This document shows, piece by piece, positions 2,778 to 49,892 of a stretch of DNA of 64,000 nucleotides. Below the pieces are notes generated by a model, which was not told the DNA's origin, searched no databases, and was given only the letters and a program-made list of their open reading frames with translations. The position numbers were made by a program, and so were the translations under genes. Within the stretch, counting starts at the first letter, position 1. Each line of letters begins with the position of its first letter. This DNA comes from a virus: the IMG/VR virus record IMGVR_UViG_3300045988_085064, one strand, 5' to 3'.

Positions 2778-3340
2778 TGACCTATGGGCAACATATGAGG
2801 GGGGAGGAGAAGATATGCTAGTTAGAGACGGCTAACTATGTTGTTTAGACAATCTGCACAATTCCCAACTTTCCGGCACACTTTACTCAACTAAAGTATT
2901 TAGCTAGTCCAAGCTAACTCCAGAAGTTGCTCTTCACTAACTTCATTTCGTTAAAGTGAAAATCCAGGGTCATGTGCGCCTATGCGTATGCATACGCCCA
3001 AGAGATTTTTATTTTTCCGGGCCGGAGTATATAATATTATATATAGCGCGGCGGCTGGTCCTTCGCGTTGCCTAGCGCCATGTCCTGGACTAGCGGATCA
3101 GGGCTATGCGCACAACGGTATTCTTCAGCTCGAGTATGTAAAAGCCGTAGCGACGTTTTGCCGAAAGATTTTGACAGAGGTATAAATATTCTTAGTGAAA
3201 TGTGAACTTAACTCAAATCGGCACCGACGGCGCGACATGATTATGATGAAATTTGCGCTCACAGTTTGCACGTCTTATGCCATATAGACAAGTTACCAAC
3301 CGACAGCCACACATTATTTTACGATGGAAAAATGTGTGAG
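2778..3340 (+). ncRNA. candidate large structured non-coding RNA (class unknown)
   Basis: About 560 nt downstream of P1 with no credible ORF. G+C is visibly higher than in the flanks. Many local helices, for example 2819-2825/2832-2838, 2900-2905/2912-2917 and 3054-3061/3087-3094. Confidence 0.35.
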
Positions 3341-4555: not shown

Positions 4556-4648
4556 GGCGGTGTCGGTTAATGGTAAGCCAGCGGTCTTATAAACCGTTTA
4601 GCTCTAGATTGGGGCAAAATCAGAGTTCGACCCTCTGCGCCGCTACCA
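4556..4648 (+). tRNA. atypical class-II (long variable arm) tRNA, formal anticodon UAU, CCA encoded
   Basis: Manual cloverleaf. Acceptor GGCGGTG/CGCCGCT, D arm GGTT-AATGGTA-AGCC, anticodon arm GCGGT-CTTATAA-ACCGT, 23-nt variable region, T arm CAGAG-TTCGACC-CTCTG, discriminator A plus CCA. Confidence 0.6.
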
Positions 4649-6535: not shown

Positions 6536-7375
6536 ATGAATGAACTGTTTATTATGAGCCTCAAGGCAAAGCATCGTAGCGAAGGCACTGTTCGTGAATA
6601 TACCAAGGCGATTGAGAATTGCATGGCTTATGTCAATAAGCCTGAAGCTGAAATCAAGCCGATTGACCTTGAATTGTGGCAGTCCAGCATGAGCAATCTC
6701 AGCTCTGCATCTGTTGCTCAGAGAACATCTGCGGTCAGAGAATACTTCAAATTCCTTTATCGGAATGAATTCATTAGCCGCAATCCGGCTGAGATGCTTG
6801 AAGCACCGCAGATTAAAAATCGTGAGCAGTCAGCTCTTAATGGTGAACAGGTCAGGGCAATGGTCAATGCGGCAACTAATGAGCGCAATAAAGCAATTAT
6901 TATGATGCTTGCTCAGACTGGTTTGCGTATTCATGAGCTTGCTAATATCACGCTTGAACAGTATGAATCCCGTAGTAATAATGTGCTGGTCATCCGTGGC
7001 AAGGGCGATAAGGATAGGCTGGTTGGTCTGGCAGATGAAACAATCGAGCTGATTGATAACTATATTTCCAATGAGCGCAAAGATGGATGCGAATATCTGT
7101 TCGTAGGCAATCGTGGAAATAAAATGGATGGCAAGAACACCAGCGCCATGCTCAAGGTATGTGCTAGAAAAGCTGGTATTGAAAATTGGGAAGAATTGCA
7201 TATTAGTAATCATACCATGCGCCGCACATTTGCTACTATGATGTCTGAGGCTGATGTACCTATTGAGATCATTAGTAAAGCAATGGGGCATAGTTCAGTT
7301 GCCATTACAGCGAATAGATATATTAAGCGTACAGAGCAGAGAGCAATTAACGCAATGAGCGTTGTTAATTTCTAA
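6536..7375 (+). CDS. tyrosine recombinase/integrase (XerC/D-like)
   Basis: The C-terminal sequence HTMRRTFATMM...MGHSSVAITANRYI carries the R..H..R..Y catalytic pattern. ATG 6536 follows GAAGGAG. Track start 6494 lies upstream of the predicted transcription start. Confidence 0.85.
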   Translation: MNELFIMSLKAKHRSEGTVREYTKAIENCMAYVNKPEAEIKPIDLELWQSSMSNLSSASVAQRTSAVREYFKFLYRNEFISRNPAEMLEAPQIKNREQSALNGEQVRAMVNAATNERNKAIIMMLAQTGLRIHELANITLEQYESRSNNVLVIRGKGDKDRLVGLADETIELIDNYISNERKDGCEYLFVGNRGNKMDGKNTSAMLKVCARKAGIENWEELHISNHTMRRTFATMMSEADVPIEIISKAMGHSSVAITANRYIKRTEQRAINAMSVVNF

Positions 7376-8903: not shown

Positions 8904-9094
8904 GCCGTAGACCTAATCACGTCTATGACATTCCTTGTATGCGATGCGATTGTCAAACAGATTGTGACAAATATGTAAAAATCGACCCACGCATGACCGC
9001 ACAGAGAGATAAAATGTGGAATGACGCAGATTTGAATTGTATGGATTGTGTACTGAGAAATGTGCTAAAAATGAGGAAGGAGTCGGCTAATTGA
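8900..9094 (+). CDS. Cys-rich hypothetical protein
   Basis: 64-aa ORF coupled to its neighbours. Confidence 0.45.
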   Translation: MSRRPNHVYDIPCMRCDCQTDCDKYVKIDPRMTAQRDKMWNDADLNCMDCVLRNVLKMRKESAN

Positions 9095-10464
9095 CAGATA
9101 AAGGCTGTAAAAAGCCATATATTCATTTCTTGTCAAATGCCGCAGTTGACGTAACTGGCTCTTGTCATCATGTGCGATTCAAAAAATATAGCATCCTCCT
9201 AGATTGTGGCATGATACAGGGGATGGGAGATATTGTATCTAACTATAAGGCTAATCTTGCACAACTAAAAAAGATTAAACCAAGGGATGTAGATTTTATT
9301 GTATTGGGGCATAGCCATTTAGATCATATTGGGCTTGTTCCTGCATTATATGCTAAAGGATGCAATGCGCATCTCTATGTGCCATCTGGCTCTACTAATT
9401 TTCTCAAATTGTTATGGGAAGATAGCCTAAAAATCATGCGATCTGATTGTCTGAAAATTCAGAATAAGCACGGACAGAAAGCTGCGCCATTCTATGACGA
9501 ACAAGCTATTGAACGTGCGCTTAATCGCATTATAGAGATTGATTATAACATACCAATCTCGCTTGCACCAGACATTAAATTGACATATTATCCAGCCGGT
9601 CATATTATCAATTCGGCGCAATGCGTACTTGAGCTAAAAGATGGATATGTGACTAAGCGCATTGGTTTCACTAGTGATATTGGTGGTGTATCTGAAAAAC
9701 CGTACAAAGCGCGTAGACAGCCGTTGCCATTTGTTGATGTTCTTATCTCTGAATGCACATATTGCCAACAGGGGCGACCCAACAGCCACAAGGATAGAGA
9801 TAAGGATATTGAGAAGATTAAGACGGTTATTGCTGAATCCAATAAAATACTAATCCCATGTTTTTCTCTTGACCGAACACAATCTATGTTGCGCCTATTA
9901 CATGATAAGGGTATTGATAAGCAAATCAAAATTTATCTTGATTCCCCTCTTGCATCTAAATTCTGTGCAATCTGGCCGTGGGAAGAAGATGAAATTGAGA
10001 ATGTGCGAATTGTTGAATCTCAAGAAGAATCAGTTAATCTACAAATGCGAAATGAGCATTGCTTAATCATAAGTGCATCAGGCTTCCTTGTCGGAGGCCG
10101 GATTATGAGTCATCTAAAAACGGCTCTGCCTGATAGTTGCAATCATATCTTATTCTGCGGCTTTGCTGGGGAAAATGGACTTGCGTCTCAAATTAAATCC
10201 AATATGCCAGAGGTCAATATTGATGGCGTGAATGTAGCGAACAAAGCCAATATCACAGAACTGCGCTCATTTAGTAGCCATGCTAGTTATGAAGAATTGA
10301 TTGACTACTTAACAAATCAATGCCGTTTCAATAAACTATGCTTAGTGCATGGGAACTATGAGAACAAAGTAGAATTTTCTCATACATTACAAGATGAGCT
10401 AATAAAACAAGGTAAATCAAGTAGAGTAGTATGCACTCAACAAGATCAGCGAATTTATTTGTAA
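9091..10464 (+). CDS. MBL-fold / beta-CASP-type metallo-nuclease
   Basis: HxHxDH motif (LGHSHLDHIGLVP). 457 aa, a length typical of RNase J/CPSF/SNM1-like enzymes. TTG start. Confidence 0.8.
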   Translation: MTDKGCKKPYIHFLSNAAVDVTGSCHHVRFKKYSILLDCGMIQGMGDIVSNYKANLAQLKKIKPRDVDFIVLGHSHLDHIGLVPALYAKGCNAHLYVPSGSTNFLKLLWEDSLKIMRSDCLKIQNKHGQKAAPFYDEQAIERALNRIIEIDYNIPISLAPDIKLTYYPAGHIINSAQCVLELKDGYVTKRIGFTSDIGGVSEKPYKARRQPLPFVDVLISECTYCQQGRPNSHKDRDKDIEKIKTVIAESNKILIPCFSLDRTQSMLRLLHDKGIDKQIKIYLDSPLASKFCAIWPWEEDEIENVRIVESQEESVNLQMRNEHCLIISASGFLVGGRIMSHLKTALPDSCNHILFCGFAGENGLASQIKSNMPEVNIDGVNVANKANITELRSFSSHASYEELIDYLTNQCRFNKLCLVHGNYENKVEFSHTLQDELIKQGKSSRVVCTQQDQRIYL

Positions 10465-10480
10465 AATTAAATAAACCCTC

Positions 10481-10509
10481 TTGACAACCGCTCTAATCTA
10501 TGATATAAT
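10481..10509 (+). promoter_or_regulatory. consensus promoter (P6) with SD-complementary spacer
   Basis: TTGACA 10481-10486, 17-nt spacer, TGaTATAAT. Positions 10484-10493 are complementary to 10528-10537. Confidence 0.65.
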
Positions 10510-10520
10510 CCAAGTATCAA

Positions 10521-10826
10521 ATGAAAGGGGCGGTTGTTATTATAAAATTCTGTTTGAACATCACGTCGATTGGTTATCCATTTTATGTAGAGGCGATTAA
10601 CAAGTATCCTTGTCTTGTGGATGAAAAGTATAAGATGTCCACGACGCGAGTATGGAACAAGGACAAAAGCATTGTGCAGAATATTACATATATTGACATT
10701 TCATCTATAGCTAAACTAAAAGAACTGATTGATGAAACAGGACATGATGTTATAATTGCACCACCACGCAAGTGGCGCGACAAGAAGCATTATGAGCTTG
10801 AAATTTATGATGATTATAGGGAGTAA
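10521..10826 (+). CDS. hypothetical protein (ends ...YELEIYDDYRE)
   Basis: 101-aa ORF. The start is uncertain: ATG 10521 would be almost leaderless from P6, and an in-frame ATT at 10539 follows a GGGG-rich SD-like site. Confidence 0.5.
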   Translation: MKGAVVIIKFCLNITSIGYPFYVEAINKYPCLVDEKYKMSTTRVWNKDKSIVQNITYIDISSIAKLKELIDETGHDVIIAPPRKWRDKKHYELEIYDDYRE

Positions 10827-10832
10827 GTAATT

Positions 10833-11475
10833 ATGACCACTAAAAAATTGTATGACATTATCAAAGCATGGCGTGATTCCTGTGATACTGCCGGGTTGTA
10901 TCTAATTGTCAAGGATATGGATACTACACTGAAGCAGCTTGAATCTGATATGCTCATTGAGCAATCAAAGAAATCTGGTACTAAATCCATTGTGACTGCG
11001 GCGAATAGGATTATTAAAAAACGCTGAATCGCGCAATAAGCCTATGCTTGAAGGTATGTTTACCAATCAGACAAGAGATGGATTAACGCTATATTGTGTA
11101 TGTGATAGCTTTGTAGCTATTAGATTCAACGAAAAGCCGCTCCTGCCTGAGATTGATGAAAAATATCACGGATAGGAAATGCAGCTTGAACAGATTGTTA
11201 AGTTTATGGACGGCTCTAAGGAAATTAAGCTGCCTAATATTGGCGAACTCAAGGTATATATCAAGACGCATAAAATTAAAGAAAAGGATAATCCTAAGAA
11301 AGTGGCTGATTATCTGCTTGATGAGGAATTAAATCTGTAGATAAATCCACAGTATTTACTTAATACTATGGAATGTCTGCCTGATTGTAAGGCGTATGCG
11401 GCAAATAGAATCAGTCCGATTTATTTCAAGGCAGAAAATGGTGATGGCGTGGTTATGCCGGTAAATCATCAATAA
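10833..11475 (+). pseudogene. sliding-clamp-like gene, disrupted or recoded (one frame change at an A6 tract, two in-frame TAG)
   Basis: Frame 0 runs 10833-11027. Frame +1 is open from 10996 to TAA 11473-11475 except for TAG codons at 11173 and 11338. Motifs KPMLEGMF...LYCVCDSFVAIRF and NPQYLLNTME...SPIYFKAENGDGVVMPV recall DnaN-type clamps (recalled from memory). Confidence 0.4.
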
Positions 11476-11489
11476 GGAGGAATAAAAAG

Positions 11490-11810
11490 ATGGAATATAA
11501 TATTGGAGACATCATAAAGTTCAAAAATGAAGCCGGTGTATTTCAGGTTGAGATTAAGAGTGAGATTCCAACAATAGATGCTATTCAAGGATTTGCTGAC
11601 GATATGATTTTTGAAGGCAAAATGCGGTTTGAAGTACACCACAGAGACTATGGAGAATATATTATTACCATGACAAGCCGTGAAGAATCCAATGATACGG
11701 GTAAAATTATCGTATGTTTGCTTGATACTTGTAATGATGAGGTTGAATATTATCTTGGACAGATTATTCAGTATGAAGATGAAGAAGATGTATTTGAGTT
11801 GATGAAGTGA
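11490..11810 (+). CDS. hypothetical protein
   Basis: 106-aa ORF with a TAAGGAGGA SD. Confidence 0.5.
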   Translation: MEYNIGDIIKFKNEAGVFQVEIKSEIPTIDAIQGFADDMIFEGKMRFEVHHRDYGEYIITMTSREESNDTGKIIVCLLDTCNDEVEYYLGQIIQYEDEEDVFELMK

Positions 11811-14800
11811 TGAATACAAACTATACAATCCTTCACCTTCATTCTATGCTATCTAATGGCGTAACCAACATAGATTCTGTGACGCGCTACGACCAATATA
11901 TAGACCGCGCCGCAGAGTTAGGGATGAAGGCAATAGCATTTTCTGAACACGGGTCAATTTTTCAATGGGTAAAGAAAAAATTGCATACTGAAGAAATGGG
12001 TATGAAATATATCCATGCTCAAGAATTTTATCTAACTCAGACCTTGGATGAAAAAATCCGTGATAATTACCACTGTCTGTTAATTGCTAAAAATTATGAT
12101 GGCATATTAGAGCTGAACAAGTTATCAAGTAAGGCATTTAACCGTGACGATAATTCATTTTATTATGTACCGCGAATCACGATTGATGACGTAAAGAATA
12201 CCAGTGATAATATCATTGTATCTACAGCTTGTCTTGGCGGCGTATTGAACAAAGCACCAGATGATGTTCGATGGGATTTCTACCATTGGCTATGTGAGCA
12301 TAGAGACAGATGTTTTCTTGAGATTCAGCCCCATCTTGACCCCGCTCAAAAGAGCTATAACAACACGCTATGGGCACTATCTAAACAAAGCGGCTTGCGG
12401 CTATTGATGTGTACTGATACTCATGCGCTCAATTCTACTCATGTAGATGGGCGACGCATCCTACAAAAAGCCAAGAATATTCATTTTGACGGTGAAGATA
12501 AATTTCATCTTGAAATGATGAGCTATGATGAGTTAGTGCAACTATGCTGCATGCAAGACGCGCTACCTATAGATGTGTACTTGGATGCTATTGAGATGAC
12601 AAACACGGTAGCAGATATGATTGAACCGTTTGAGCTTGATTATAGCTATAAATATCCTCATCTATGGGGTGATGATAGTGAGGCTGTGCTTAGAGATAAG
12701 ATCGCAGACGGTATTATGTGGCGCGGTGTTGATAAGCTGCCTAATTATCAAGAATACCTAGATCGCATCGAATACGAGATGAAAGCATATATCCATAATA
12801 GCGCGATTGACTTTATGTTGCTCATGGAGGACATCATAGCATGGTGCAAGACACAGGGTATTCTTGTGGGATATGGGCGCGGCTCATGTAATGGCTCAGT
12901 CATTGCTTATCTGCTTGGAATTACTGAGATGGATAGCATCAAGCACGGGCTTAATTTTGAGCGATTCATGAATACGGAGCGTGTATCACTGTCTGATATT
13001 GATACAGATTTTCCTCCTAGTAGAATCAATGAGGTCAAGCAATATATATTTAACAAACACGGATTACACTGTTCTGACATTGTAACATTTAATACGATTG
13101 CTCTGAAGGGCGCTATTCGTGATGTTGGTAGAGCGTTGGAAATGCCACTTGATGAAGTAGGGCAAATCTGTAATACCGTAGAACAAGATGAGCACAAATG
13201 CCGCACTAAATATCCAGAGCTATTCAAATATGTCGATATTGTAAATGGTTGCGTTGTATCAGTTGGCAATCATCCTTGCGGCTTAGTTGTATCACCTCAT
13301 TCTATTGATGACCGTATGGGGCTATTCACCACATCAACAGACGATGTTCCAATCAGTCAAATTAATATGAAAGAGGTTGATTTGCAGAATTATGTCAAGC
13401 TAGATTTACTCAAACTAGACACCATTGAACTAATCAACGAGACGTGTAAATTAGCTGGTATTGAGCGCCTAACACCTGACAATGTTGATATAAATGATAA
13501 AGTCGTGTGGGATAGCATTAGAGATGATACTACGGCTATATTCCAGTGGGAAGGCATGACTGGCGATAGATATATCAAGCAACTCTTGTCTGAATCTAAT
13601 ATTCAGAAATTCAAGGCATTGAACCCAAATATTGACTATATGACATTGCTATCAATCGGTAATGGCGCAATTCGTCCTGCCGGTGCATCATATCGTGATG
13701 ACCTTGCTAATGGTGTTATCCGCAAATCTGGAAATGCGGCGATTGATGAATTTATGAAGCCGACATTTGGCTATCTTGTATTCCAGTGTCAAATTATTCA
13801 ATTCTTACATGAATATTGTGGCTATACTATGGGCGAAGCCGATGTTGTGCGCCGCCATTTTGCTAAAAAGACTGGTACAGACAAGGATATACCACAAATC
13901 AAGGCTGGTTTTGCTGAGACAATGGCAGAGCGATATAATATGAGCCAAGATGAATCAGATAAGGTTATAGCTGATTTTATCCAAGTCATTATCGACGCTA
14001 GTAATTATCTGTTCTCTCTAAATCATAGTCAGCCATATAGCTATGAGGGATATGTATCAGGTTGGCTTAGATACCACTATCCACTTCAATTCCTTACGGT
14101 TGCTATGAATATCAATCAAGGTAAAGAGGAAAAGACGGCGGCACTAACGGCATATGCTCATAAAGTCGGCATTAAAATTAAATCTCCTAAATTTCGTCAT
14201 TCTCGCTCAGATTATTTTTACGATATAAACGAAAATACAATCTATAAGGGGCTTGGCTCAATCAAGTATATGAGCACCGATGTAGCCGAGGCATTATATG
14301 GTATGCGCGATATGCAGTTTAAGAATTTTATTGATGTGCTATTTGCTATTCAACAGCTCAACTCTAAACCAGATGCGCGGCAACTTGATATTCTAGTTAA
14401 AATTGGTTATTTTGCAGAATTTGGACCAGCCAAGGCACTATTGCTAGGTATTGAGATTTTTAATAAATTTTCAAAATGCAAGACAATTAAACTTGACAAA
14501 TGGGTTGGAATGGGTTATAATGTAGATATGCTCAAGCCGTATGCTGGTAATCTAACAGAGAAAACAGCTAGTCAACTTGATAATCGCGGCATCATATTAT
14601 CGATTCTGCGCTCAATGAAAATGCCAAAGACAACTATTGCTGATAAACTGAAATGGCAGATTGAGTTATTAGGCTATGTGGATGGCAACGACCCCAATTC
14701 AGACCTTAATGATTGGCTAGTGCTAGATGTTAAGACAACAGGATATGGTACGATTTATTGTATGCTTTATAACCTATGCTATGGCGCAGAACGCACATAT

Positions 14801-14968
14801 CGAGCTAATAAGAAATTCTGGACAAATCATCAATTATCAAAGGGTGATGCAATTAGAGTTGTATTGCAAGAGAAAAATAAAATGAAAAAGGATGAAAATG
14901 GTGAATGGGTAACATTATCGGAAACGTATCAGGAGATGAAAGTGTGGAAGAAGCATGAAGAAATGTAA
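11807..14968 (+). CDS. dnaE: DNA polymerase III alpha subunit (DnaE-type, N-terminal PHP domain)
   Basis: 1053 aa. PHP motif ILHLHSMLSNG...AFSEHGS, and GYGRGSCNGSVIAYLLGIT typical of Pol IIIalpha. Confidence 0.9.
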   Translation: MMNTNYTILHLHSMLSNGVTNIDSVTRYDQYIDRAAELGMKAIAFSEHGSIFQWVKKKLHTEEMGMKYIHAQEFYLTQTLDEKIRDNYHCLLIAKNYDGILELNKLSSKAFNRDDNSFYYVPRITIDDVKNTSDNIIVSTACLGGVLNKAPDDVRWDFYHWLCEHRDRCFLEIQPHLDPAQKSYNNTLWALSKQSGLRLLMCTDTHALNSTHVDGRRILQKAKNIHFDGEDKFHLEMMSYDELVQLCCMQDALPIDVYLDAIEMTNTVADMIEPFELDYSYKYPHLWGDDSEAVLRDKIADGIMWRGVDKLPNYQEYLDRIEYEMKAYIHNSAIDFMLLMEDIIAWCKTQGILVGYGRGSCNGSVIAYLLGITEMDSIKHGLNFERFMNTERVSLSDIDTDFPPSRINEVKQYIFNKHGLHCSDIVTFNTIALKGAIRDVGRALEMPLDEVGQICNTVEQDEHKCRTKYPELFKYVDIVNGCVVSVGNHPCGLVVSPHSIDDRMGLFTTSTDDVPISQINMKEVDLQNYVKLDLLKLDTIELINETCKLAGIERLTPDNVDINDKVVWDSIRDDTTAIFQWEGMTGDRYIKQLLSESNIQKFKALNPNIDYMTLLSIGNGAIRPAGASYRDDLANGVIRKSGNAAIDEFMKPTFGYLVFQCQIIQFLHEYCGYTMGEADVVRRHFAKKTGTDKDIPQIKAGFAETMAERYNMSQDESDKVIADFIQVIIDASNYLFSLNHSQPYSYEGYVSGWLRYHYPLQFLTVAMNINQGKEEKTAALTAYAHKVGIKIKSPKFRHSRSDYFYDINENTIYKGLGSIKYMSTDVAEALYGMRDMQFKNFIDVLFAIQQLNSKPDARQLDILVKIGYFAEFGPAKALLLGIEIFNKFSKCKTIKLDKWVGMGYNVDMLKPYAGNLTEKTASQLDNRGIILSILRSMKMPKTTIADKLKWQIELLGYVDGNDPNSDLNDWLVLDVKTTGYGTIYCMLYNLCYGAERTYRANKKFWTNHQLSKGDAIRVVLQEKNKMKKDENGEWVTLSETYQEMKVWKKHEEM
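14493..14521 (+). promoter_or_regulatory. perfect consensus promoter inside the dnaE coding sequence (P7)
   Basis: TTGACA 14493-14498, 17-nt spacer, TATAAT 14516-14521. No TG extension. Confidence 0.4.
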
Positions 14969-15161
14969 AGGATTCTGTGCAAATGAATGTGTGACCGGAT
15001 ATTGCCCGATTGCGCTTGATAGGAAATACGATTGGTATAGTGATATGGGATATGATGTGCCAAAGAACTGCAAAGAATGTTACTACAATACATTTAATTG
15101 TGCAGATTGCATTTTCCAAAAATCAAAATATTGTATAAAATTAGAGGGGGGCGTAAAATAA
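14955..15161 (+). CDS. Cys-rich hypothetical protein
   Basis: 68-aa ORF overlapping the dnaE end. Confidence 0.5.
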   Translation: MKKCKGFCANECVTGYCPIALDRKYDWYSDMGYDVPKNCKECYYNTFNCADCIFQKSKYCIKLEGGVK

Positions 15162-40636: not shown

Positions 40637-40735
40637 TTACTTTAGATTTTCCCTTACGGCCTCCCGGTATTTTGCGGGTACCTGGGCCAGGGTGATGCGC
40701 CCCAGCCGCACCTGCAAGGTCAAAAACTGCACCAT
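40637..40735 (-). CDS. small protein (32 aa) in high-GC cassette
   Basis: MVQFLTLQVRLGRITLAQVPAKYREAVRENLK. TAAATG coupling to the upstream small ORF. Below the track cutoff. Confidence 0.45.
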   Translation of the reverse strand: MVQFLTLQVRLGRITLAQVPAKYREAVRENLK

Positions 40736-40909
40736 TTACTCCGTGCCTCCCATCACAAGCTCCAGCATCGCCGCCTCCAGCGCCTCCAGTCGCTCCTCCG
40801 CCGTCGGCCCCGGCTCCGGCTGCGCGGCCAGCATGGCGTTGTATTCCGCCTCTTCTTCCGGCGTCATGTTCCGGATGACCCCGTTGTCGCTGATCCTCAA
40901 TTTGCTCAC
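40736..40909 (-). CDS. small protein (57 aa) in high-GC cassette
   Basis: A GTG overlaps the fibre stop. ...MTPEEEAEYNAMLAAQPEPGPTAEERLEALEAAMLELVMGGTE. The inner ATG is also possible. Confidence 0.45.
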   Translation of the reverse strand: MSKLRISDNGVIRNMTPEEEAEYNAMLAAQPEPGPTAEERLEALEAAMLELVMGGTE

Positions 40910-42147
40910 CCCATTTTGTAAATGTTGACGGTCGTCCCGCTGATGATTTTGACGCCGGATGTTTGGGAGTAGATGTATATTTTGTTTGCTTTATATTCTG
41001 CATTTTGTGGGACGTTTTGGGAGTTTTGTGTCCTGTCCGACACCGAGTGGATCGTCCCTCCCAACACAAAAAAGGTCCACCTGGATTGTATGACCGAGTA
41101 TTTGTATTGTCCGGTGACCGTCCCCACCATCATACCGGTGTATGTGTTTCCTTCCGACCCGATCCTGACGTTTACAACAGGTGTTGTAACGTTGGCGGTC
41201 AAATCTCCGTTGTTCGGTACAATCGTCTCACAAAAATACAGCTTGCCCGGCTCAATCGTCAGATCGTTTATTGCCGACATGGTCGTCCCGTCTGCGGTCC
41301 AGGTATACACCAGCTCGATGCCGCTTGAGCTTCCACCGCCCCCCGGCGCGGTCCACAGCTTGCCGTCTGTGTCCATGCCCACGGTCTTGGTCATGTCATC
41401 TGTTTTACTATCAGGTCCAGGAATTTTTTGTAACACACGCGAAACATTGCCGTTAGACATAACGGTGAACTGGGATATGCTATTATTAAAAGTTAGTCCA
41501 GAGAAGAATGCAACCTGCGGTCCTTGTGCCCCAGCAAGATTGTGCATGATAGTAACGTACTGCGCAACCACCCGTTTCCCGGCCTGTATCGCAGCCCAGA
41601 TTTCTGTCGTAGTTTTGTTGCAAACATACGGAGATGCCGTTGTGCCGATCCCGGTAATCATGCAAACGAGAACCCCTGGACTATGGTTTGCCACATAATC
41701 TGCAATACCACCCGAATTGGCAACATTATTATCTGGATCATATACAGATTTAAGCATATCACCAGCTCCAGCTGCCGATAATGCGTCAGAAACAGCCTTT
41801 TCAGATGGAACTTTTGTTGTAGATACACCTAGTGTCTGAGACATATCACTTGTACTAATAGCCCCAATATCAGATGCATTCAGCACCACAGCACCAGTTT
41901 TTGAATTGACGCTAGTAACTGGGGCGGATGTTAATGGCGTAATCGTCTTATCACCAAGCGTAATCACGCCATTATCAATCTTAGCATCAGTAATACCATA
42001 ACCAACTATTGTGGTAGGTTTATTTTTTACATTATCCCATTCAACATCACTAGCTGTGCCGCCTCCTGATTTTACGGCGGCAATTAATTCATCCATTTTC
42101 CCTACATAGGATGAATTTTTTAGTAAGTCGATAGTAGTATCTGCCAT
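40906..42147 (-). CDS. mosaic tail fibre (low-GC N-terminal anchor, high-GC C-terminal domain)
   Basis: ATG 42147 follows GGAGGG. Contains an SVNSKTGAVVL repeat. Composition switches near 41700. Confidence 0.65.
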   Translation of the reverse strand: MADTTIDLLKNSSYVGKMDELIAAVKSGGGTASDVEWDNVKNKPTTIVGYGITDAKIDNGVITLGDKTITPLTSAPVTSVNSKTGAVVLNASDIGAISTSDMSQTLGVSTTKVPSEKAVSDALSAAGAGDMLKSVYDPDNNVANSGGIADYVANHSPGVLVCMITGIGTTASPYVCNKTTTEIWAAIQAGKRVVAQYVTIMHNLAGAQGPQVAFFSGLTFNNSISQFTVMSNGNVSRVLQKIPGPDSKTDDMTKTVGMDTDGKLWTAPGGGGSSSGIELVYTWTADGTTMSAINDLTIEPGKLYFCETIVPNNGDLTANVTTPVVNVRIGSEGNTYTGMMVGTVTGQYKYSVIQSRWTFFVLGGTIHSVSDRTQNSQNVPQNAEYKANKIYIYSQTSGVKIISGTTVNIYKMG

Positions 42148-42165: not shown

Positions 42166-42993
42166 TTACTCACTCCATACTAAGTTTAGACTATTATCTT
42201 CATTTTTTGTCAGTTTATAATTTATCCCTATATCATTTGGGGTTAATACAACTACGCCTGTTTTACCATTAACTGAATCAACATTGCCGCCAGTAGATAT
42301 TGTCACATCACCAGTCTGCCCGTTTACAGATGTTACAGGATATGGAGGTGGATTACTTATACTATATTGTTTAACATTATCAACATTCCCAAGCCCAACA
42401 TCAGTTTTCCCAATCACCACCGTGCCAGTCTTGCTATTAACGCTCTGAACCGGAGCGGCATTCTTAGCAGCTGTAATATCTACATATTCACTATCGTTCT
42501 CAAGTTGACTCGTTTTAGTCGGAACAGCGGATTCCGTGATATAGCCACTATCATTGGTAAGGTCTGACGTTTTATTAGGAATTTTTGTCCCAGACGGCAA
42601 CGCTCCAACATCTGCCGCTGTCAAAACCACATCTCCTGTTTTGCCATTAACCGACTGCACCCCAGATTCACCAGTGCTTGTATCTGCAAATATGAGCGTA
42701 AACGCTTGAGACATATTACCAAATGGAACAAATACTCTATAGGCATTGCCAACAATAGGCGTACCACCATAATAAGCAATATTGCTATATGTGTTGCCAT
42801 TTATTTTCATCGTACAGACGCTAGTTGATATCTCTGTAACTATGCCACTATATATCACGGCATTATTCTTTGCCGATTTCTCTGCTAAAATTTCAATAGC
42901 ATCTAGTAGTTCATTTGCTTCGTTAATGTTGTACACCTCTATTCTTATAAAAATCCGGGTCAACACCGTGGTATCAACCCGGATATATATCAA
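42166..42993 (-). CDS. tail fibre protein with SVNGKTG repeats
   Basis: VQSVNGKTGDVVL, VQSVNSKTGTVVI, VTSVNGQTGDVTI and VDSVNGKTGVVVL. TTG start overlaps the TMP stop. Confidence 0.55.
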   Translation of the reverse strand: MIYIRVDTTVLTRIFIRIEVYNINEANELLDAIEILAEKSAKNNAVIYSGIVTEISTSVCTMKINGNTYSNIAYYGGTPIVGNAYRVFVPFGNMSQAFTLIFADTSTGESGVQSVNGKTGDVVLTAADVGALPSGTKIPNKTSDLTNDSGYITESAVPTKTSQLENDSEYVDITAAKNAAPVQSVNSKTGTVVIGKTDVGLGNVDNVKQYSISNPPPYPVTSVNGQTGDVTISTGGNVDSVNGKTGVVVLTPNDIGINYKLTKNEDNSLNLVWSE

Positions 42994-45900
42994 CGTCTGC
43001 TAAAAGCTCTCTGGTATGCTAATGCTTTTACATTTTCTACAAATTTCCTTGCATCTGCCGCAGTCTGAATATTCGGGAATGACATAGTAGTATTATTAAA
43101 TTCCATACTCATACCCGCTGGATTTCTATTTGATATAGCAATACCTTTATTATCTATAACAGACCTACCCAGATTCCAAAGATTCTTTGTGATATTGCTT
43201 GGAATAATTCCATCACCAGAGTTAAGTACCCTAAGTTCTGGGCCATTTTCACCAACCATATGAAGCCCACTTGTGCTAGATAATGTTCCATTTGCATATC
43301 CAGTAATAGAACTTAGTTTCTTATTGATTTCGTCCTGTTGCTTGATTACCTTGGCAAGTTCAGCGTCGCGTTTTGCCTCAATCACAGATTTCTTTGCTTC
43401 AAGGCTCTTGCTACGATTGTATTCATTTAGAGCTTCTTGCGCCGTGGCAATTGCATCATAATCTTGAGCGTATTGATATCGTCCATCCTTAAAAGTATAC
43501 ACCCGCTTAGAACGAGCCTCTGCTAGGTTCTTTAGCAACCCCTCATATTTAATTTGGTCTTCTAACTTATTGTTTGTATCTTCAAGCGCCTTAATCTCTG
43601 CATTATACTTATCATTGATTGCGCTCTGAGTCTCTTTGAGGGCTTTAAGCTGCGCATTCAAATTATCCTTTATCTGGGATTTTTCCCATTTGTATATCTC
43701 CTCTTGATATTTCCAATATTCCTTTTGATACTCTTGCCGCCCTTGGAAATATTTTTTATTCATCTCTTCAAGCTCTTTATAATATTGAGCTTCAGAAATT
43801 TCATCCATTGCCAAAGCGTGTTTCTTGGCGTCTAACCAAGCATCAAATTCATCTTTCCAAATATCTTTAGAACTCTTACTAGAACCTGAAGATGAAGATG
43901 AACTTGAACCAGATGAGCCAGAACTACTAGCAGAAGAATAAGACGAAGTAGGATATGAGCCACTTGTTTCCCTGCTTTTAGACGTTTTAGGGATTTTGCC
44001 CTTAGCCGTAATAGGCGTTAGTCTCGAAACAAGGTCGAACGAAACTCTTGGGATGTATCCAAGTCTATGTGCTTGAATCGCGCCATGTAATTTTTTCCCA
44101 TTTAGAATAGCTCTAGTCTCTTCTGCCGTATACACATAATCTCCATCGTGCATCTGAGTAATTGTCGGCATACCATTACCAGCGATATATGCCTCATTAC
44201 CACTTTGGATAAGCTCAGGGCCTTCCTCATTTACAAGAGATGGCCCTTCTTTTGTTCTACCGCCATCTGCATTGACTTGGTATCTTGTGTCGCCAAGATT
44301 CTGAATGTTATTCTTTGCGTTTTGCGCTTGATTGGACACTCTAAGTAGTTGATCGCCAAGAGACCTAACCTGACTCGTAATACCCGACAGAGACGTACTA
44401 TTCAAATCTTCCAACTCAGATGTCATCTCTGCCGTTGCAGATTCCGTCTCACCAGCTTTTTTGATAATATCGTCTATGCTCTCAGGTACATTTGTCAATC
44501 TTACATTATCCGCATCTTCCAAAGAACGCTTCATGTCTAAGATGGCATCCTTAGAATAACCAACCTCAGATAACCCCTCTACAACCTTAGTAAAATCGAT
44601 TTCATTAACGCCATTTTTGACTGTAACAATAGAACTATCAAGATTGCTAAATGCAGATATGAGCGCATCAATGTTCCAATCAACATCCGCTCCATATACC
44701 TTGCCAGCCTCAATAAGTGCCCAAAGCTGAGATGTTGTCAGCCCCATAGAATTGGCAAGTTGGTCAAAATCAGTAATATTATAGGATATAGAGTCTCCCG
44801 TTGTATCTAATGTCGCGCCAACAAGCTCTCCAGCATCTGCCAATTCTTGCATAACTGTAACAAATCCAAGCCCGCCCGATTCAGCGTCAGAATACAAGGT
44901 TGACAATCTATCCATAATACCGGCCATATACTCAGCCTTATCAGAAGCGTTGTCAAATCTAGTTAAAATGTCATCCCCGACAAGTTGAGATAAGGCATTT
45001 CTGAATGTTAGAGAGCCAATTTGCCCAGCTTCAAATTCGTCATTAAGAGTTGAGAACACAGATGCAAGCCCCTTAAAAGCATCATCATAGTCGCCCGTTT
45101 GGGACATGGCATTGTCAAAATTCGTTTTAGCATCTGTCGCGCCTTGAATCATGTCGGCCCATCTTAGAACCGTTTCAGCAGACGATTTGAATTTAGAATC
45201 CATATCGCTGGTCGCATCGCCTATACTACCAGCTAGATCGCTAAACCTCTTATATAGCTCATAGACTTCATCCTTGGTAATAGATAATCTTTGAGCAATA
45301 GTATCAGCAACATCAGAAAACGACCGCCCCTCAGAATTAGCAACCGTTTGTACCACTACCAATTGCTGATAACTATTATATTCATCCATCAAAGCATCAG
45401 ATACTTGATTCCCAGCATCTATCTGTTGCTTGATGATTTCATAATATTGTTTGCCGCTTTGAATCGCATTGTCAACATCTTCGGCCCAGCGCTTAGTTTG
45501 TGCTCTGGGACTATCAAATATATTCTTAGACATCCCAGAATAGGTATATAAAGATTTGTAATATTCAGCATTGGACTTTGCGGCCTCGTTCTGAGATACA
45601 GTATTTTCCTTAATGGCAATTCCATATTTCTTAGCGGCTTTGGCAAGAGCCTCGGTATCTGCCTCATAATCGCCTGTTACCTCAATAAGGTCAATCAATT
45701 TGGCCTTTTGAGCAATTATAGTTTGGCTATTTGTAGCGGACGCTATCGTAACAGTGATCTCGGCATCAGCAATATCCCATAGAGCATCAGACATATCTTT
45801 GTATACCTTAGTATTATCAATACCAGATATATTAATATTTGAATTCTTGGTGCCAACAGATACACCTTCAACCCTATCCTTGCTAAGGATTGACGCGCCT

Positions 45901-46833
45901 TCAGCAATTTGAGCTTTCTGTTGGATATCTAGCAACTTTTCATAATATGCAATGACGTGCTCTAGGTATTCCGCTTCTTTATCAATATCAGCGGTCCTGT
46001 CCTCCCATGGCGTTGCATTGATTTCCTGAAGACTGGACTTAGCATCATCGTATTTGCCGCTAATTTCTTGGACTTTATCTCCAAGTTCATTATATTCATC
46101 AATATGCTCTTGGATGGATTTATTTGCTTCGGCAATAAGCCCAGATATGCCTCTAAACACCTCGGCTAATCCAGCCACAGCCACAGCAACAGCAGCTATA
46201 ATTACCAATGTTTTCGGAGCTAATAATGTTGCAAGTAAGCCACCGCCACCAGCAGTTGCCGCTAATGTGGCACTCAATTTAGCCATAGCCGCAATTATAG
46301 TGCCAACAATGCCAACTAATGCAGTTAATGCCGCAGCAAATCCACCTACACGGGCGATAACAGCCACAACATCATTATTGGCAAAACTAAGCATTGTATG
46401 CCCAGCATCAAGGAAACCGCTTACTAAATCCTTTGATAAGACACGATTGGAAAAATCCTCAAATTCAGCCTTGAGCAGTTGTTCTTTAGCTCCAAGACTT
46501 TCCATATACCGCTCATTTTCTTTCATGGCCGAGCCATTGGATTCTAGTGCTGTATTAGTTGCATTGATAGCTGTTTGGTAATTCTTTAAAAGAGCGGCTA
46601 GATTTTGAGTTTGAGTGGTTCCTGCTTGCTGTTGCAGATAATACATCTGCTCATTCTTAGTTAATGTCGGCCAGATTTTTGCTACATCAGTCAATACATC
46701 ATATAGACTGCGAATCTGACCTTCGTCATCTTTTATCGCAATTTCGTGTTCTTGATACCATTTTGTAAGCGCCTTACCAGTGTCAGATGATTCATCTACG
46801 ACTTGGTTTAAGCGGGCTTGTACAGTGATAAGT
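42990..46833 (-). CDS. tape measure protein, exon 3
   Basis: The frame is open from 46832 (after an in-frame TGA at 46835-46833). Sequence LITVQARLNQ..., TM/Gly-Ala region, long coiled coils. Confidence 0.85.
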
Positions 46834-48385
46834 CAATGTATTAACTCGGATTCGTCACATCCGATAAGGAGAATTTATTTATAAAATCAGTTAACAAGAC
46901 ATCGTGCTCGTCTTTTTCTAACACCCAAAATGGAACCCGCAATAACGGAATGTTATTATCTTCACAGTATTTAGTTTTTATCTCGTCATTCTCTTTCACT
47001 GTCTCATATTTCTTTTCTGCTTGTTCTCTATATTTTTTACCACCAAATGAAACTGGCCTATAATGTCCTATTCCATCAACCTCAATGCAAGCATTAAAAT
47101 CTGTTAAATAAAAATCAAATGGTAATGCTCTTTTATTGACACATCTATCAAATGTTTTTTCTTTTTCATATAGTATATTATTATTATTTAGCCACAGCTC
47201 TACTTTTGCAGAAATAGCAGATTGTTTCATTCTACATTCATTGCATTGATACTTTCCATCTGCGAAATGATATGCATCAACCTTAAAGTCGTTGCCACAA
47301 GAGCATTGAACAATAAATGGCGATTTTACACCATTGTATTCTTGATTATAAATGGTACAATCCCAATCTTTTAGAAAAGCATATATCCTTAAATTATCAA
47401 GAGCGTATGGGTTTGATTTGCCGAATCTCTCAAATGAACACCCGTTATATAGCGAGGTAACACTAATAAGCCCACGATAACCGTTTTTGTCCTGAACAAC
47501 AACATTATCTTTTGACCTTATCGTTGAATCATTCAAAATACACAATCCAGATTTCCTAGCAATTTCATGATATTTGTTAGAATCAATATGGTTTGTATTG
47601 ACTTCTCCCCTACTTCTTTTTATCTTGTAACATCTATTGCAGCATTTATCATCTTTTGAATAATATTTATGCCATGTTGATGTAAATTCACCGCCACATA
47701 TTCCGCACTTAAACATGATTGGCATATCAATGTTTGATATATCTTCTTTTTTTGTTAATAAAATAGTACCATACTCATTTGTCTTTTTGATATATAACAT
47801 CATATTGTCATAAAAATATGGGTTTTTTGTGCTAAATGTATGCTCTACATCCACAGAGTAACGTTTTTTATATGTTAAAGTGTGTTTACAAGTGTGGTAG
47901 CTTCTTTTGTATTTATATCCATCAGAATCAACACAGTCATATTTATAATCTACGCCACGCGCAATATCTTCCAATAACGTTAATCCAACTTGTTCAAATA
48001 ATTTCCTTGTTTCTTCTATTGTTATTTTTTTCGACATAAATTCTCCTTCTTGCATTTTCATGCAATGTTTAGACTATTTCTTCATCTCATAGTATTGAGA
48101 GTCTATCATTTCGATTTAAGGGAATCTCACCCACAAGCTTAGACGTACTTGCCCTACTCCTATTGTGATATAGTCACCAATGGGATAGTCGTTTGACTCA
48201 CTCCTATTCGGAGCTTTGCGCCCAAACATCCATTATAAAATACTTAGGTGTTTCCACCATATATCATCTCTATCGTTTTTAATACTTTCGCACATTCACG
48301 CTTGTCAATCTTTCAAGACTACGTTGTAGTGATAGAGCTTTAGGAATTACTGGGTTTAGATAGATATCATGAGGCATATTACTAT
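46834..48385 (-). mobile_element. group-I-like intron 2 (1552 nt) with endonuclease ORF
   Basis: 5' exon GAGGU pairs with internal GCCUC (48375-48371). The last nt is G (46834). Shares core blocks and covarying helices with intron 1. Confidence 0.7.
46841..48037 (-). CDS. intron-encoded homing-endonuclease-like protein (zinc ribbons + PD-(D/E)XK/Vsr-like C-terminal domain)
   Basis: ATG 48037 follows AAGGAG. Several CxxC...CxxC modules. C-terminal LPFDFYLTDFNACIEVDGIGHY matches the nuclease-type motif. Confidence 0.55.
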   Translation of the reverse strand: MSKKITIEETRKLFEQVGLTLLEDIARGVDYKYDCVDSDGYKYKRSYHTCKHTLTYKKRYSVDVEHTFSTKNPYFYDNMMLYIKKTNEYGTILLTKKEDISNIDMPIMFKCGICGGEFTSTWHKYYSKDDKCCNRCYKIKRSRGEVNTNHIDSNKYHEIARKSGLCILNDSTIRSKDNVVVQDKNGYRGLISVTSLYNGCSFERFGKSNPYALDNLRIYAFLKDWDCTIYNQEYNGVKSPFIVQCSCGNDFKVDAYHFADGKYQCNECRMKQSAISAKVELWLNNNNILYEKEKTFDRCVNKRALPFDFYLTDFNACIEVDGIGHYRPVSFGGKKYREQAEKKYETVKENDEIKTKYCEDNNIPLLRVPFWVLEKDEHDVLLTDFINKFSLSDVTNPS

Positions 48386-48774
48386 ACCTCTAGGCACTTA
48401 TTGTTTGCCCTACTTCCCTTGGCGGCGTTCCTCGTGATTTCAGTCATAGCCGTAAGCATACCAAGGGATTGTTCAAATGTATTATTGCCTGTTGCCATAG
48501 CAGCAGACATATTACCTAGGTTCTGTGCTAATTGCCCAGATGAAACAGCATAATTATTTGATACAGCATTAACCGCATCGATAATATGCTCAGCATTATC
48601 CGCTTCAATATTGAACGCCTTCATCTGCGCAACAATAAATGATGCGCTATCTGCCGCAGAAACCGATTCATCCGCTACGTTCTGAAAAGTAGTCGCAACT
48701 TTAGCTAGAGTTGCCGAGTCAGAATCATTAAAGCTGTTTTTACGGAATTGAGTTGCGGCCTCAACCATCTCTGA
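48386..48774 (-). CDS. tape measure protein, exon 2 (TP901-type core)
   Basis: SEMVEAATQFRKN...NVADE...AVSSGQLAQNLGNMSAAMATGN...TEITRNAAKG. The 5' splice site could alternatively lie at 48410|48409. Confidence 0.8.
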
Positions 48775-48795
48775 CGGTTATAAATTATCCAATGC

Positions 48796-48882
48796 TTACT
48801 TGCCCTTCCAGCAAGCAACTGTATATGCAATCATAAATGTAAACCAGCCAACAATGAAAATTGTAGCGTAGAAATCTCCCAT
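48796..48882 (-). CDS. 28-aa hydrophobic micro-ORF inside intron 1
   Basis: TAATG coupling to the upstream ORF. MGDFYATIFIVGWFTFMIAYTVACWKGK. Confidence 0.3.
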   Translation of the reverse strand: MGDFYATIFIVGWFTFMIAYTVACWKGK

Positions 48883-49112
48883 TACAGCTTCCCCCATCTT
48901 TCATCGTCACACCCATATTCAGCCGTTCTTTTCTGCTCTTCTTCAGCGGTTTCATAATGAATGTTGTACTGTTCATCATCAGGCTCTTTTTTAATAAGCC
49001 CATGGTCGTGGTTGTTACGAATACCATACACAATCATCTTGATTAGTGTAACCAGTCCAACAATAAAGAACGCTGGAACAACAAAAATAAAAACCATAAT
49101 TGAGAGAATCAT
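48882..49112 (-). CDS. 76-aa single-pass membrane protein inside intron 1
   Basis: AAAGGA SD, then ATG 49112. N-terminal TM MILSIMVFIFVVPAFFIVGLVTLI and an acidic C-terminal tail. Confidence 0.45.
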   Translation of the reverse strand: MILSIMVFIFVVPAFFIVGLVTLIKMIVYGIRNNHDHGLIKKEPDDEQYNIHYETAEEEQKRTAEYGCDDERWGKL

Positions 49113-49145
49113 AATGTAACATCCTTTCTTTTATTTGGTGTCTAC

Positions 49146-49174
49146 ACTATAACACATATTAGATAATTTGTCAA
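49146..49174 (-). promoter_or_regulatory. consensus promoter inside intron 1 (P13)
   Basis: On the minus strand: TTGACA (49174-49169), 17-nt spacer, TGtTATAGT (ends 49146). Confidence 0.55.
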
Positions 49175-49520
49175 GGGGTTTTTAATCCCTTCCTGAATAT
49201 TTCTTCGCCCTATTTTATTGGAGGGTCGCCCTGTATATTCGATTGACACATCCCTCATCAGGACTTCGCGCCCAATTTGCCCTTTTGTCCCAAATATTAT
49301 ACATTATTTGTGACAGATTCTTTAGGTTTTTCAACCATGGAATCATCCTTATCGTCTTTCTGCTTTCGCACTAATTGTTCATTACTAATGAACATATCAC
49401 ACTCAGGCATATCTCATCCTCATGTTGTAGTGATAAGGCTCTTGAGGCTTTCAAGGGTTTAGGGGCTGTTCTCTATGCTGCTTTACCATCGCAACATACC
49501 GGCTCAGACCGATTTGGTTT

Positions 49521-49892
49521 ACCGGTTCGTCCTACTTCCTTGCCCATATTGGCAAGTTTCTGCGTATATGAATCAAGCGCCGCGCCAGTTAAATCCGACA
49601 CCTTTTTAAATTCTGTTTGTGCCGTGTCAAGCGCTTTAACTTGAGTATACATTTTGCTTGTAACATCCACAACGGCATCGAATACTTGTCGTAATTGTTG
49701 ATACGTTATAGATAGCTCTTTTGTGGCGTTATCAAGCGATTGCGTTGCACCAGTTGTTTCTTTTATTCCTTTACCATTTACGGTTGTTTCAACGTCAACG
49801 CTATATTTCCTAGAGCTTAGGTTTCTTTGTATTTTTTCAAGATCGAGTACAGCATCGAGAACTATACTATAATTACTATTTGTTCCAGCCAT
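49521..49892 (-). CDS. tape measure protein, exon 1
   Basis: 124 codons ending ...TEFKKVSDLTGAALDSYTQKLANMGKEVGRTG. The unspliced frame stops 15 codons later. Confidence 0.8.

Follow-up and report, generated by a model that had tools for sequence, protein, structure and literature searches.

Bacterial beta sliding clamps of the DnaN type carry three tandem clamp-fold domains in about 360-380 amino acids (aa), each domain consisting of two beta-alpha-beta-beta-beta motifs; a clamp loader places them on DNA as a closed ring, which tethers the polymerase. Several shorter phage proteins are annotated as 'Pol III beta-like processivity factor', such as those of Bacillus phage vB_BcM_Sam46 (217 aa), Escherichia phage Seurat (246 aa) and Lactobacillus phage LfeInf (166 aa), and are linked to replication by annotation only. 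Genes that are not read straight through have also been described: the frame is changed by programmed +1 frameshifting of the prfB type and by slippage on A runs of the dnaX type, and TAG is reassigned (genetic code 15) in gut phages including the crAss-like and Lak phages (bioRxiv 10.1101/2021.08.26.457843; PMC9523058). Here we revisit a locus that touches on each of these systems, positions 10833-11475 of a 64,000-nucleotide stretch of viral DNA (IMG/VR record IMGVR_UViG_3300045988_085064; hereafter, the window). A first-pass annotation had pieced together from the sequence alone a clamp-like gene that requires a +1 frame change at an A6 tract and read-through of two in-frame UAG codons, and had left three options for it: a decaying pseudogene, assembly errors, or an essential replication factor gated by slippage plus amber suppression. 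The evidence is best explained by the first of these, in that the locus is, with a probability of roughly 0.8, a recently inactivated copy of a 213-codon accessory replication gene.

The layout that had been described stood up in all its coordinates. The open reading frame (ORF) at 10833-11027 ends in ...AANRIIKKR-TGA beyond the A6 tract, and the +1 frame, open from 10996, runs to TAA at 11473-11475, interrupted only by the TAGs at 11173-11175 and 11338-11340 (Table 1). Joining the two frames at the A-tract and reading both TAGs yields 213 aa, exactly the length of the orthologues, with AANRIIKNAESR across the frameshift junction, KYHG[Q/x]EMQLEQIVK across the first TAG and LNL[W/x]INPQYLLNTMECLPDCK across the second. 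Since the family profile picks up each of the four ORF fragments and the repaired length is 213 aa, the arrangement is more than chance. The first fragment comprises residues 1-62 of the intact protein, that is, its N-terminal three-helix bundle, followed by two out-of-frame codons, and it is the sole fragment with a start codon and a Shine-Dalgarno (SD) sequence of its own; ATG 11044, which had been reported to lack one, is indeed without a purine-rich SD in the preceding 20 nt. The stretch similar to the C-terminus of DnaN, NPQYLL...MPV, falls in the fourth fragment. A profile search found no second copy of the family elsewhere in the genome.

The ancestral state of the three sites can be read from 22 full-length DNA copies (from L005, L007 and the IMG/VR loci L008-L029) and from 115 orthologous proteins. 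All 22 copies are open across all three lesion sites, one of them carrying TGA at codon 13, and retrieval via the neighbouring gene, which is unbiased, also yields open copies. Where the window reads AAAAAAC, 21 of the 22 have AAG AAC or AAG AAT and the remaining one AAA AAT, the orthologous peptide across this site being RIIKNAES. The position of the first TAG is occupied by CAG in 20 copies and CAA in 2 (Gln in 111 of 115 proteins), and that of the second by TGG in 21 copies and TTG in 1 (Trp in 115 of 115). Each of the three lesions is one mutational step away from the orthologue state, and both TAGs arose by a single G:C to A:T transition, the type that in a codon reading also makes up most of the private missense changes of the window copy. 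Since the two TAGs replace different residues and the A-tract is absent in relatives, neither can be regarded as a conserved recoding signal; the orthologues, which the first-pass annotation had proposed to compare for conserved TAGs, hold sense codons at both positions.

The pattern of substitution speaks to the timing. The family has a median pairwise omega of 0.20, indicative of purifying selection, and the window copy gives an omega of 0.11 against its nearest relatives at a synonymous divergence (dS) of ~0.4, in a comparison that contains no close intact sister, none being present in the 90% cluster of the 64-aa fragment. The low omega at this divergence implies that the copy has spent most of its history under constraint, and thus that the inactivation is recent. 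The window copy carries four private missense changes, three of them at positions that are at least 95% conserved, and its private changes including the lesions number 7, where the 115 orthologues average 0.97 and reach 5 at most. An exact 23-mer search of IMG/VR for the first TAG or for the corresponding CAG allele gave 0 matches, and hence no intermediate allele.

Defects of other kinds are found in other lineages. L028 has the TGA mentioned above, in place of Trp13 (3037-3039), and L027 (3001-3546) an in-frame N-terminal deletion; the proteins P0124 and P0130 carry deletions, one of which lies between the two AANRI repeats; and in P0159 and P0181 the ORF leaves the family sequence after codon 61 and codon 43, respectively, to enter one and the same foreign stretch (RFSVL..RSYNRL..). 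A mobile insertion with the clamp-like gene as its target is suggested by this sharing, and the defects fit a gene that is useful but dispensable.

That the lesions might be a product of sequencing or assembly, with a true genome reading A5 (or AAG AAC), CAG and TGG, is an explanation to which we assign next to no probability. Homopolymer length errors are common in some technologies, but only one lesion affects a homopolymer, the other two being base substitutions, and the allele recurs in independent material. Contigs of about 76.8 kb in the ENA assemblies ERZ28657857, ERZ915365 and ERZ27262637 match the window at 100% identity, and an independent run, SRR28753479 (Logan assembly), contains a phage that is 0.45% diverged in the flanks (65/13,728 and 19/4,272 positions) and nevertheless carries an identical 987-bp allele with all three lesions. 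A segment of 721-987 bp is thereby identical in four assemblies, and the protein fragments were deposited independently in NCBI as DAZ67980-82. The recurrence of the allele in independent assemblies and in a diverged strain shows that the lesions are real and heritable, and refutes the assembly errors that had been considered. The public gene call on the SRR28753479 contig (SRR28753479_99438, 987 bp) reads both TAGs as Gln to give a 143-aa product; this is an automatic choice of code and not evidence of recoding, and the standard code is used for the long contigs of the same phage. The short contig breaks off on either side of the clamp-like gene, which suggests strain heterogeneity there.

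We thus favour a scenario in which the insertion of one base made the A6 tract and shifted the frame after codon 62, while CAG at codon 114 and TGG at codon 169 each became TAG, and in which these three lesions have become fixed in a circulating phage lineage. Only the 64-residue N-terminal helical fragment, which has the original SD and start codon, would then still be translated efficiently, and the clamp-fold domain would not be produced in any meaningful amount. Complete 76.8-kb genomes with this allele have been assembled from several gut samples, and the phage evidently replicates without the clamp-like protein, the loss of which is, we infer, tolerated. In other words, the clamp-like locus would be an ordinary gene caught soon after its inactivation, and the natural knock-outs indicate that its product is accessory rather than essential.

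The gene that was lost belongs to a large family. The 213-aa conceptual product, a length that had been estimated correctly, finds 1263 homologues, the best 120 of which are uninterrupted, 213-221 aa long (nearly all 213) and 87-92% identical to the query at 100% query coverage; an exhaustive search places the 50%-identity representatives in 501 clusters, typically of 205-240 aa. Pfam and PHROGs return nothing meaningful for the conceptual protein, which in particular has no match to Pfam DnaN at E <= 1, and neither do 114 diverse members at E <= 0.01. Among the phages in INPHARED, megablast of window positions 9000-15000 finds no match, and tblastn a single distant homologue, which is uninterrupted. 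A structural perspective was more informative. An AlphaFold2 model of the orthologue P0001, built from a 114-sequence alignment, reached a pLDDT of 96.4 and a pTM of 0.88, and consists of three helices (3-19, 23-48 and 51-66, the bundle thus spanning 3-66) followed by one beta-alpha-beta domain at 75-207. When the model is compared to the PDB by Foldseek, every one of the 50 best matches is a bacterial beta sliding clamp (E = 5e-4 to 1e-2, probability 0.98-1.0, template modelling (TM) score over the query 0.3-0.5). A sequence profile search of PDB chains gave only sub-threshold matches, E = 0.08-1.2, consistently on DnaN residues ~295-366. Among the predicted viral structures in BFVD, the closest matches are uncharacterised proteins of gut Siphoviridae.

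The DnaN-type resemblance that had been proposed therefore holds at the level of the fold, but does not extend to membership of the DnaN family. The C-terminal 130 residues are predicted to share the clamp fold with DnaN (PDB 7ybd, 6dj8 and 5frq); the NPQYLL...MPV segment aligns weakly with DnaN ~295-366; and the gene lies near a DNA polymerase III (Pol III) alpha gene. The differences are nonetheless considerable: there is one clamp-fold domain rather than three, in 213 rather than ~370 aa, an additional three-helix bundle at the N-terminus, no Pfam DnaN match, and no clamp loader in the phage genome. A ring, if these single-domain proteins form one, would need six copies, unlike that of DnaN. 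The short phage processivity factors mentioned above are closer in size, and are matched structurally in BFVD (E ~1e-3 to 7e-3, TM 0.36-0.45), although sequence similarity between them and the family is undetectable. Judging by the predicted structure, the family can meaningfully be described as clamp-like in fold, but not as a DnaN-type clamp proper, and the intact protein may be an accessory factor of the replisome, associated with the polymerase or with a clamp. A large uncharacterised phage family thereby gains a putative fold, in which one clamp-fold domain is joined to a helical bundle.

While recent inactivation accounts for most of what we see, a number of observations sit uneasily with it. 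The ORF is clean apart from the lesions, and the omega of 0.11, with the reservation about sisters made above, speaks of strong past constraint; three disabling changes beside about four private missense changes exceed a simple neutral expectation, in which a stop arises from about one substitution in 20. Each premature stop is a TAG, the stop used least often in the window (8 of 100 greedily called ORFs, with 39 for TGA and 53 for TAA), which bears out the rarity that had been noted by eye. Of about six genes that end in TAG, two are backed up by a TAA directly behind it, and programmed recoding at a TAG apparently occurs in the terminase gene of the same phage clade (see below). A +1 slip on AAA-AAA-C restores the orthologous RIIKNAES exactly. 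The 987-bp segment shows 0 differences between strains that are 0.45% apart, where ~4 would be expected, in a comparison that is biased by the contig having been picked through an exact match to the 64-aa ORF. The full 643 bp are retained, and dead DNA is usually deleted quickly by phages. One could read several of these points as favouring the gated factor that had been envisaged, for which +1 ribosomal or transcriptional slippage at the A6 tract and read-through of both UAGs, through near-cognate tRNAs or a suppressor of the host, where UAG termination would be slow, would provide a low, regulated amount of full-length protein. The exact repair by a +1 slip, the choice of UAG for both premature stops, the tandem TAAs and the intact remainder of the ORF would all be accommodated; UAG is misread by near-cognate Gln- and Trp-tRNAs, so that read-through of this kind would restore the wild-type residues; and the conserved internal TAG that the ribosome must pass in the terminase of this clade implies that UAG recoding is in use here. 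We nevertheless consider this explanation very unlikely. The slippery tract is missing in 21 of the 22 orthologues, the TAGs correspond to two different residues, and every other lineage keeps a plain ORF under purifying selection. In the complete circular genome (76.8 kb, made up of the window, L031 and L034), ARAGORN and Rfam find only a tRNA(UAU) and a tRNA-Leu(CAA), and thus none of the tRNAs with a CUA anticodon that had been proposed as a search target in the phage; a suppressor tRNA of the host is possible. No GGAGG- or SD-like element lies upstream of the A-tract, the 89 nt 3' of it fold no better than shuffled sequences (z = 0.06), and the 0-frame TGA is one codon past the slippery codon and hence not in the A site. 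The take-off and landing codons that are matched at the terminase site are not matched at the two TAGs of the clamp-like gene (GGA TAG GAA and CTG TAG ATA), and this mismatch of the flanking codons (GGA/GAA and CTG/ATA) also rules out a hop-type bypass at either of them. Three unassisted events of low efficiency would, moreover, multiply to a negligible yield. A related speculation, which we regard as a long shot and as slightly less probable still, is that UAG serves as a deliberately slow control codon throughout the clade and that the clamp-like factor has been placed under the same control in this lineage; the 64-aa helical fragment would then be made constitutively, and traces of full-length protein would appear whenever A-tract slippage and two read-throughs coincide, for instance when host RF1 is limiting.

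Somewhat less improbable, though still unlikely, is that the break is a domain truncation, in which the 64-aa ORF is kept by selection, for instance as a module that binds the polymerase or another partner, and the clamp-fold domain has been discarded. This ORF is free of lesions, with SD and start codon preserved, two strains with differences elsewhere share it unchanged, and the position of the bundle in the AlphaFold model places the break at a domain boundary, which may, however, be coincidence. We see no natural member of the family that consists of the bundle alone, short database entries being contig ends, deletions or chimeras, and natural forms of ~161-163 aa do the opposite: they start near residue 50, losing most of the bundle and keeping the clamp-fold domain. 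Recent inactivation of the gene thus remains our preferred reading.

Comparison with the described recoding systems leads in the same direction. The locus shares with the prfB and dnaX types an AAA AAA C on which +1 re-pairing of tRNA-Lys is possible and a 0-frame stop nearby, but differs from them in that the A-tract is not conserved, the stop is one codon off the A site, and neither an SD-like stimulator nor a structure accompanies it. With the code 15 phages it shares the human-gut origin, in-frame TAGs and TAG as the rarest stop, but here a suppressor tRNA is lacking, in-frame TAGs are limited to the clamp-like gene and the terminase site, the TAGs replace Gln and Trp instead of a single amino acid, and long contigs are called with the standard code. 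Indeed, TAG terminates other genes in this genome, including the large terminase and a RuvC-like gene, and the structural and late genes read as long uninterrupted ORFs in the standard code. Positions 10996-11475 are the one place on the coding strands of the window where ORFs with no other explanation become joined once TAG is taken as sense; other candidates are off-frame inside longer standard ORFs or lie at the insertion in the tape-measure gene. One of the latter, an ORF with two in-frame TAGs at 49215-49892, was considered as a second recoded gene and ruled out, since it is the end of tape-measure exon A entering the insertion. The class II-like tRNA at 4556-4648 was likewise considered as a suppressor and ruled out, as its anticodon loop CUUAUAA gives UAU and it is present in relatives with an intact gene. 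Orthologue codon states, a full-genome tRNA inventory and independent strains thus remove what would have been a tempting false positive for programmed recoding.

The tandem TAAs lie directly after TAG at 2397-2402 on the plus strand and at 49873-49878 on the minus strand, and the TAG that ends the terminase gene is followed by TGA nine codons later, for an 8-residue extension if read through. As a rough estimate only, the tandem stops may hint at leaky or slow UAG termination in the host.

A much stronger recoding candidate than the clamp-like gene lies just beyond the window. The bypass of T4 gene 60 has the form GGA-UAG...GGA. For the terminase of Streptomyces phage Hau3, UUA-triggered bypass blocks of 7 nt and 10 nt have been proposed (PMC10732093). 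In the present lineage the large terminase gene is called as two ORFs of 43 and 515 aa, where a close relative has a single ORF of 614 aa. The in-frame TAG that separates them is at L034 6576-78, corresponding to window position ~64208-64210 on the minus strand (the whole site being 6573-6581, or ~64205-64213), between the conserved IEWLTLF and RRNWHIYVD..LRPFQ..SRGLSKS (Walker A-like). The site recurs in L035, L037-L050, L054, L056, L073 and L074. IMG/VR relatives show the forms TTC TAG TTC, TTT TAG TTC and TTC TAG TTA (14 loci), as well as TAT TAG C TAT, TAT TAG G TAT, TAT TAG TT TAC and TTC TAG CAA TTC. The stop is always TAG, and the flanking codons are 3, 4, 5 or 6 nt apart, for a frame difference of 0, +1, +2 or 0, respectively. 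The codon before TAG covaries with the codon before CGN-MGN-AAY-TGG, as Phe/Phe or Tyr/Tyr, the TTA form being one near-match. Relatives without the insert read ..T[LFY][FY]RRNW.. or ..[TS]LYRYNW.. continuously, and skipping the block restores their ..TLF-RRNW... In the commonest form no ATG, GTG or TTG is present between TAG and the LRPFQ motif, an interval that shows synonymous variation, and RNAalifold detected no conserved RNA structure around the TAG.

The several gap lengths and frames mean that neither read-through nor a single type of frameshift can explain all of these forms. A short peptidyl-tRNA hop from a take-off codon to a matching landing codon, over a slow UAG, is a candidate mechanism that would explain every one. 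The likeness to Hau3 and to T4 gene 60 lies in a slow codon, here UAG, after the take-off codon, and a matching codon 3-6 nt on; the trigger differs from that of Hau3 in being a stop codon instead of a rare sense codon, and the gap is far shorter than in T4 gene 60. If hopping were true, short translational bypassing would gain a new natural example in this site. The contigs that carry the terminase site have intact clamp-like genes, which makes the terminase feature clade-wide and unrelated to the lesions of the clamp-like gene.

The coordinates of the locus and of its neighbours are given in Table 1. As had been proposed, the clamp-like gene is two genes 5' of the Pol III alpha gene, whose identity rests on four Pfam domains, and the relatives examined share the order nuclease, clamp-like gene, ~106-aa gene, polymerase. 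In L007 (10001-13766) the place of DnaE is taken by an 808-aa gene with a faint match to family-B polymerases, and an intact clamp-like gene and one extra small ORF precede the ~106-aa gene; the clamp-like gene thus keeps its polymerase-adjacent place even where the polymerase has been swapped. The replication module further contains DnaB, primase, RecJ, RecD2, RNR, ThyX and dUTPase, and Pfam finds neither DnaN nor a clamp loader in it or elsewhere in the genome. The promoter match listed in Table 1, a pattern match only, sits 5' of the gene run that leads from 10521 through the clamp-like gene to DnaE, and may well function as its promoter.

Table 1 Features of the clamp-like locus and its neighbourhood in the window
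Feature	Position	Strand	Basis or remark
Metallo-beta-lactamase / beta-CASP nuclease, 457 aa, conserved upstream neighbour	9091..10464	+	Precomputed Pfam
Consensus sigma-70-type promoter match (TTGACA-17-TATAAT with TG)	10481..10509	+	12/12 positions
SD-like AGGGAG	10818..10823	+	9 nt 5' of ATG 10833, direct reading
Fragment 1, 64-codon ORF ending in TGA 11025-11027	10833..11027	+	Profile match E = 1.8e-10
Fragment 2, +1 frame, residues ~63-113	10996..11172	+	Profile match E = 6.6e-12
A6 tract, frameshifting lesion (one extra base)	11016..11021	+	Orthologue comparison
First TAG, codon 114 (..KYHG*EMQ..)	11173..11175	+	Nonsense codon
Fragment 3, residues 115-168	11176..11337	+	Profile match E = 2.9e-9
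Second TAG, codon 169 (..LNL*INPQ..)	11338..11340	+	Nonsense codon
Fragment 4, residues 170-213, normal stop TAA 11473-75	11341..11475	+	Profile match E = 2e-22
Conserved 106-aa gene between clamp-like gene and polymerase, no assigned function	11490..11810	+	
Pol III alpha (DnaE-type) replicative polymerase, 1052 aa	11807..14968	+	Pfam PHP, DNA_pol3_alpha, DNA_pol3_finger, HHH_6

One relative departs from this arrangement. A phage from SRR28082630 (L032) is 99.8% identical to the window until the start codon of the clamp-like gene, beyond which it abruptly has unrelated ORFs; the switch, at its position 19917 (window 10835), marks a recombination breakpoint, a module swap exactly at the start of the clamp-like gene. 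A check of dispensability at the clamp position of this relative yielded nothing, its replication module differing from 10835 onward. The same relative (L032; L036) has an insert-free terminase.

By its YomU/YomW/YomX/YonB/YonG-type structural genes the phage is SPbeta-like, and it has an 854-aa gene with weak Pfam RdRP matches, which we take to resemble the SPbeta polymerase YonO. By terminase sequence, Enterocloster phage PMBT24 comes closest among cultured relatives (45% identity); together with the structural genes, this loosely points to gut Clostridia as the host. A scan of genome contigs for prophage copies by which the host could be identified found no relative.

The tape-measure gene (42990-49892, minus strand) is in three collinear pieces (~49892-49524, 48771-48406 and ~46832-42990), where the same region is continuous in phage PMBT24. 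The first insertion is ~750 nt long, and the second, of ~1.55 kb, contains a 406-aa ORF (46841-48061) with CxxC motifs and no Pfam match; TAG is the stop of each of the two upstream pieces. The insertions are probably introns or homing-endonuclease elements, although no intron model of Rfam matches them. The split gene shows that interrupted essential genes are tolerated in this genome, presumably by means of splicing.

The tRNA at 4556-4648 (plus strand) is 90-93 nt long and combines a long variable arm (class II-like) with the anticodon UAU, which would read AUA (Ile), an unusual combination that is conserved in L005, L007 and L032. Finally, in a genome of 39% G+C, a G+C-rich island at 40640-41100 (minus strand), with small ORFs at 40736-40909 and ~40640-40735, lies between tail genes of 417 and 356 aa and was probably acquired horizontally.

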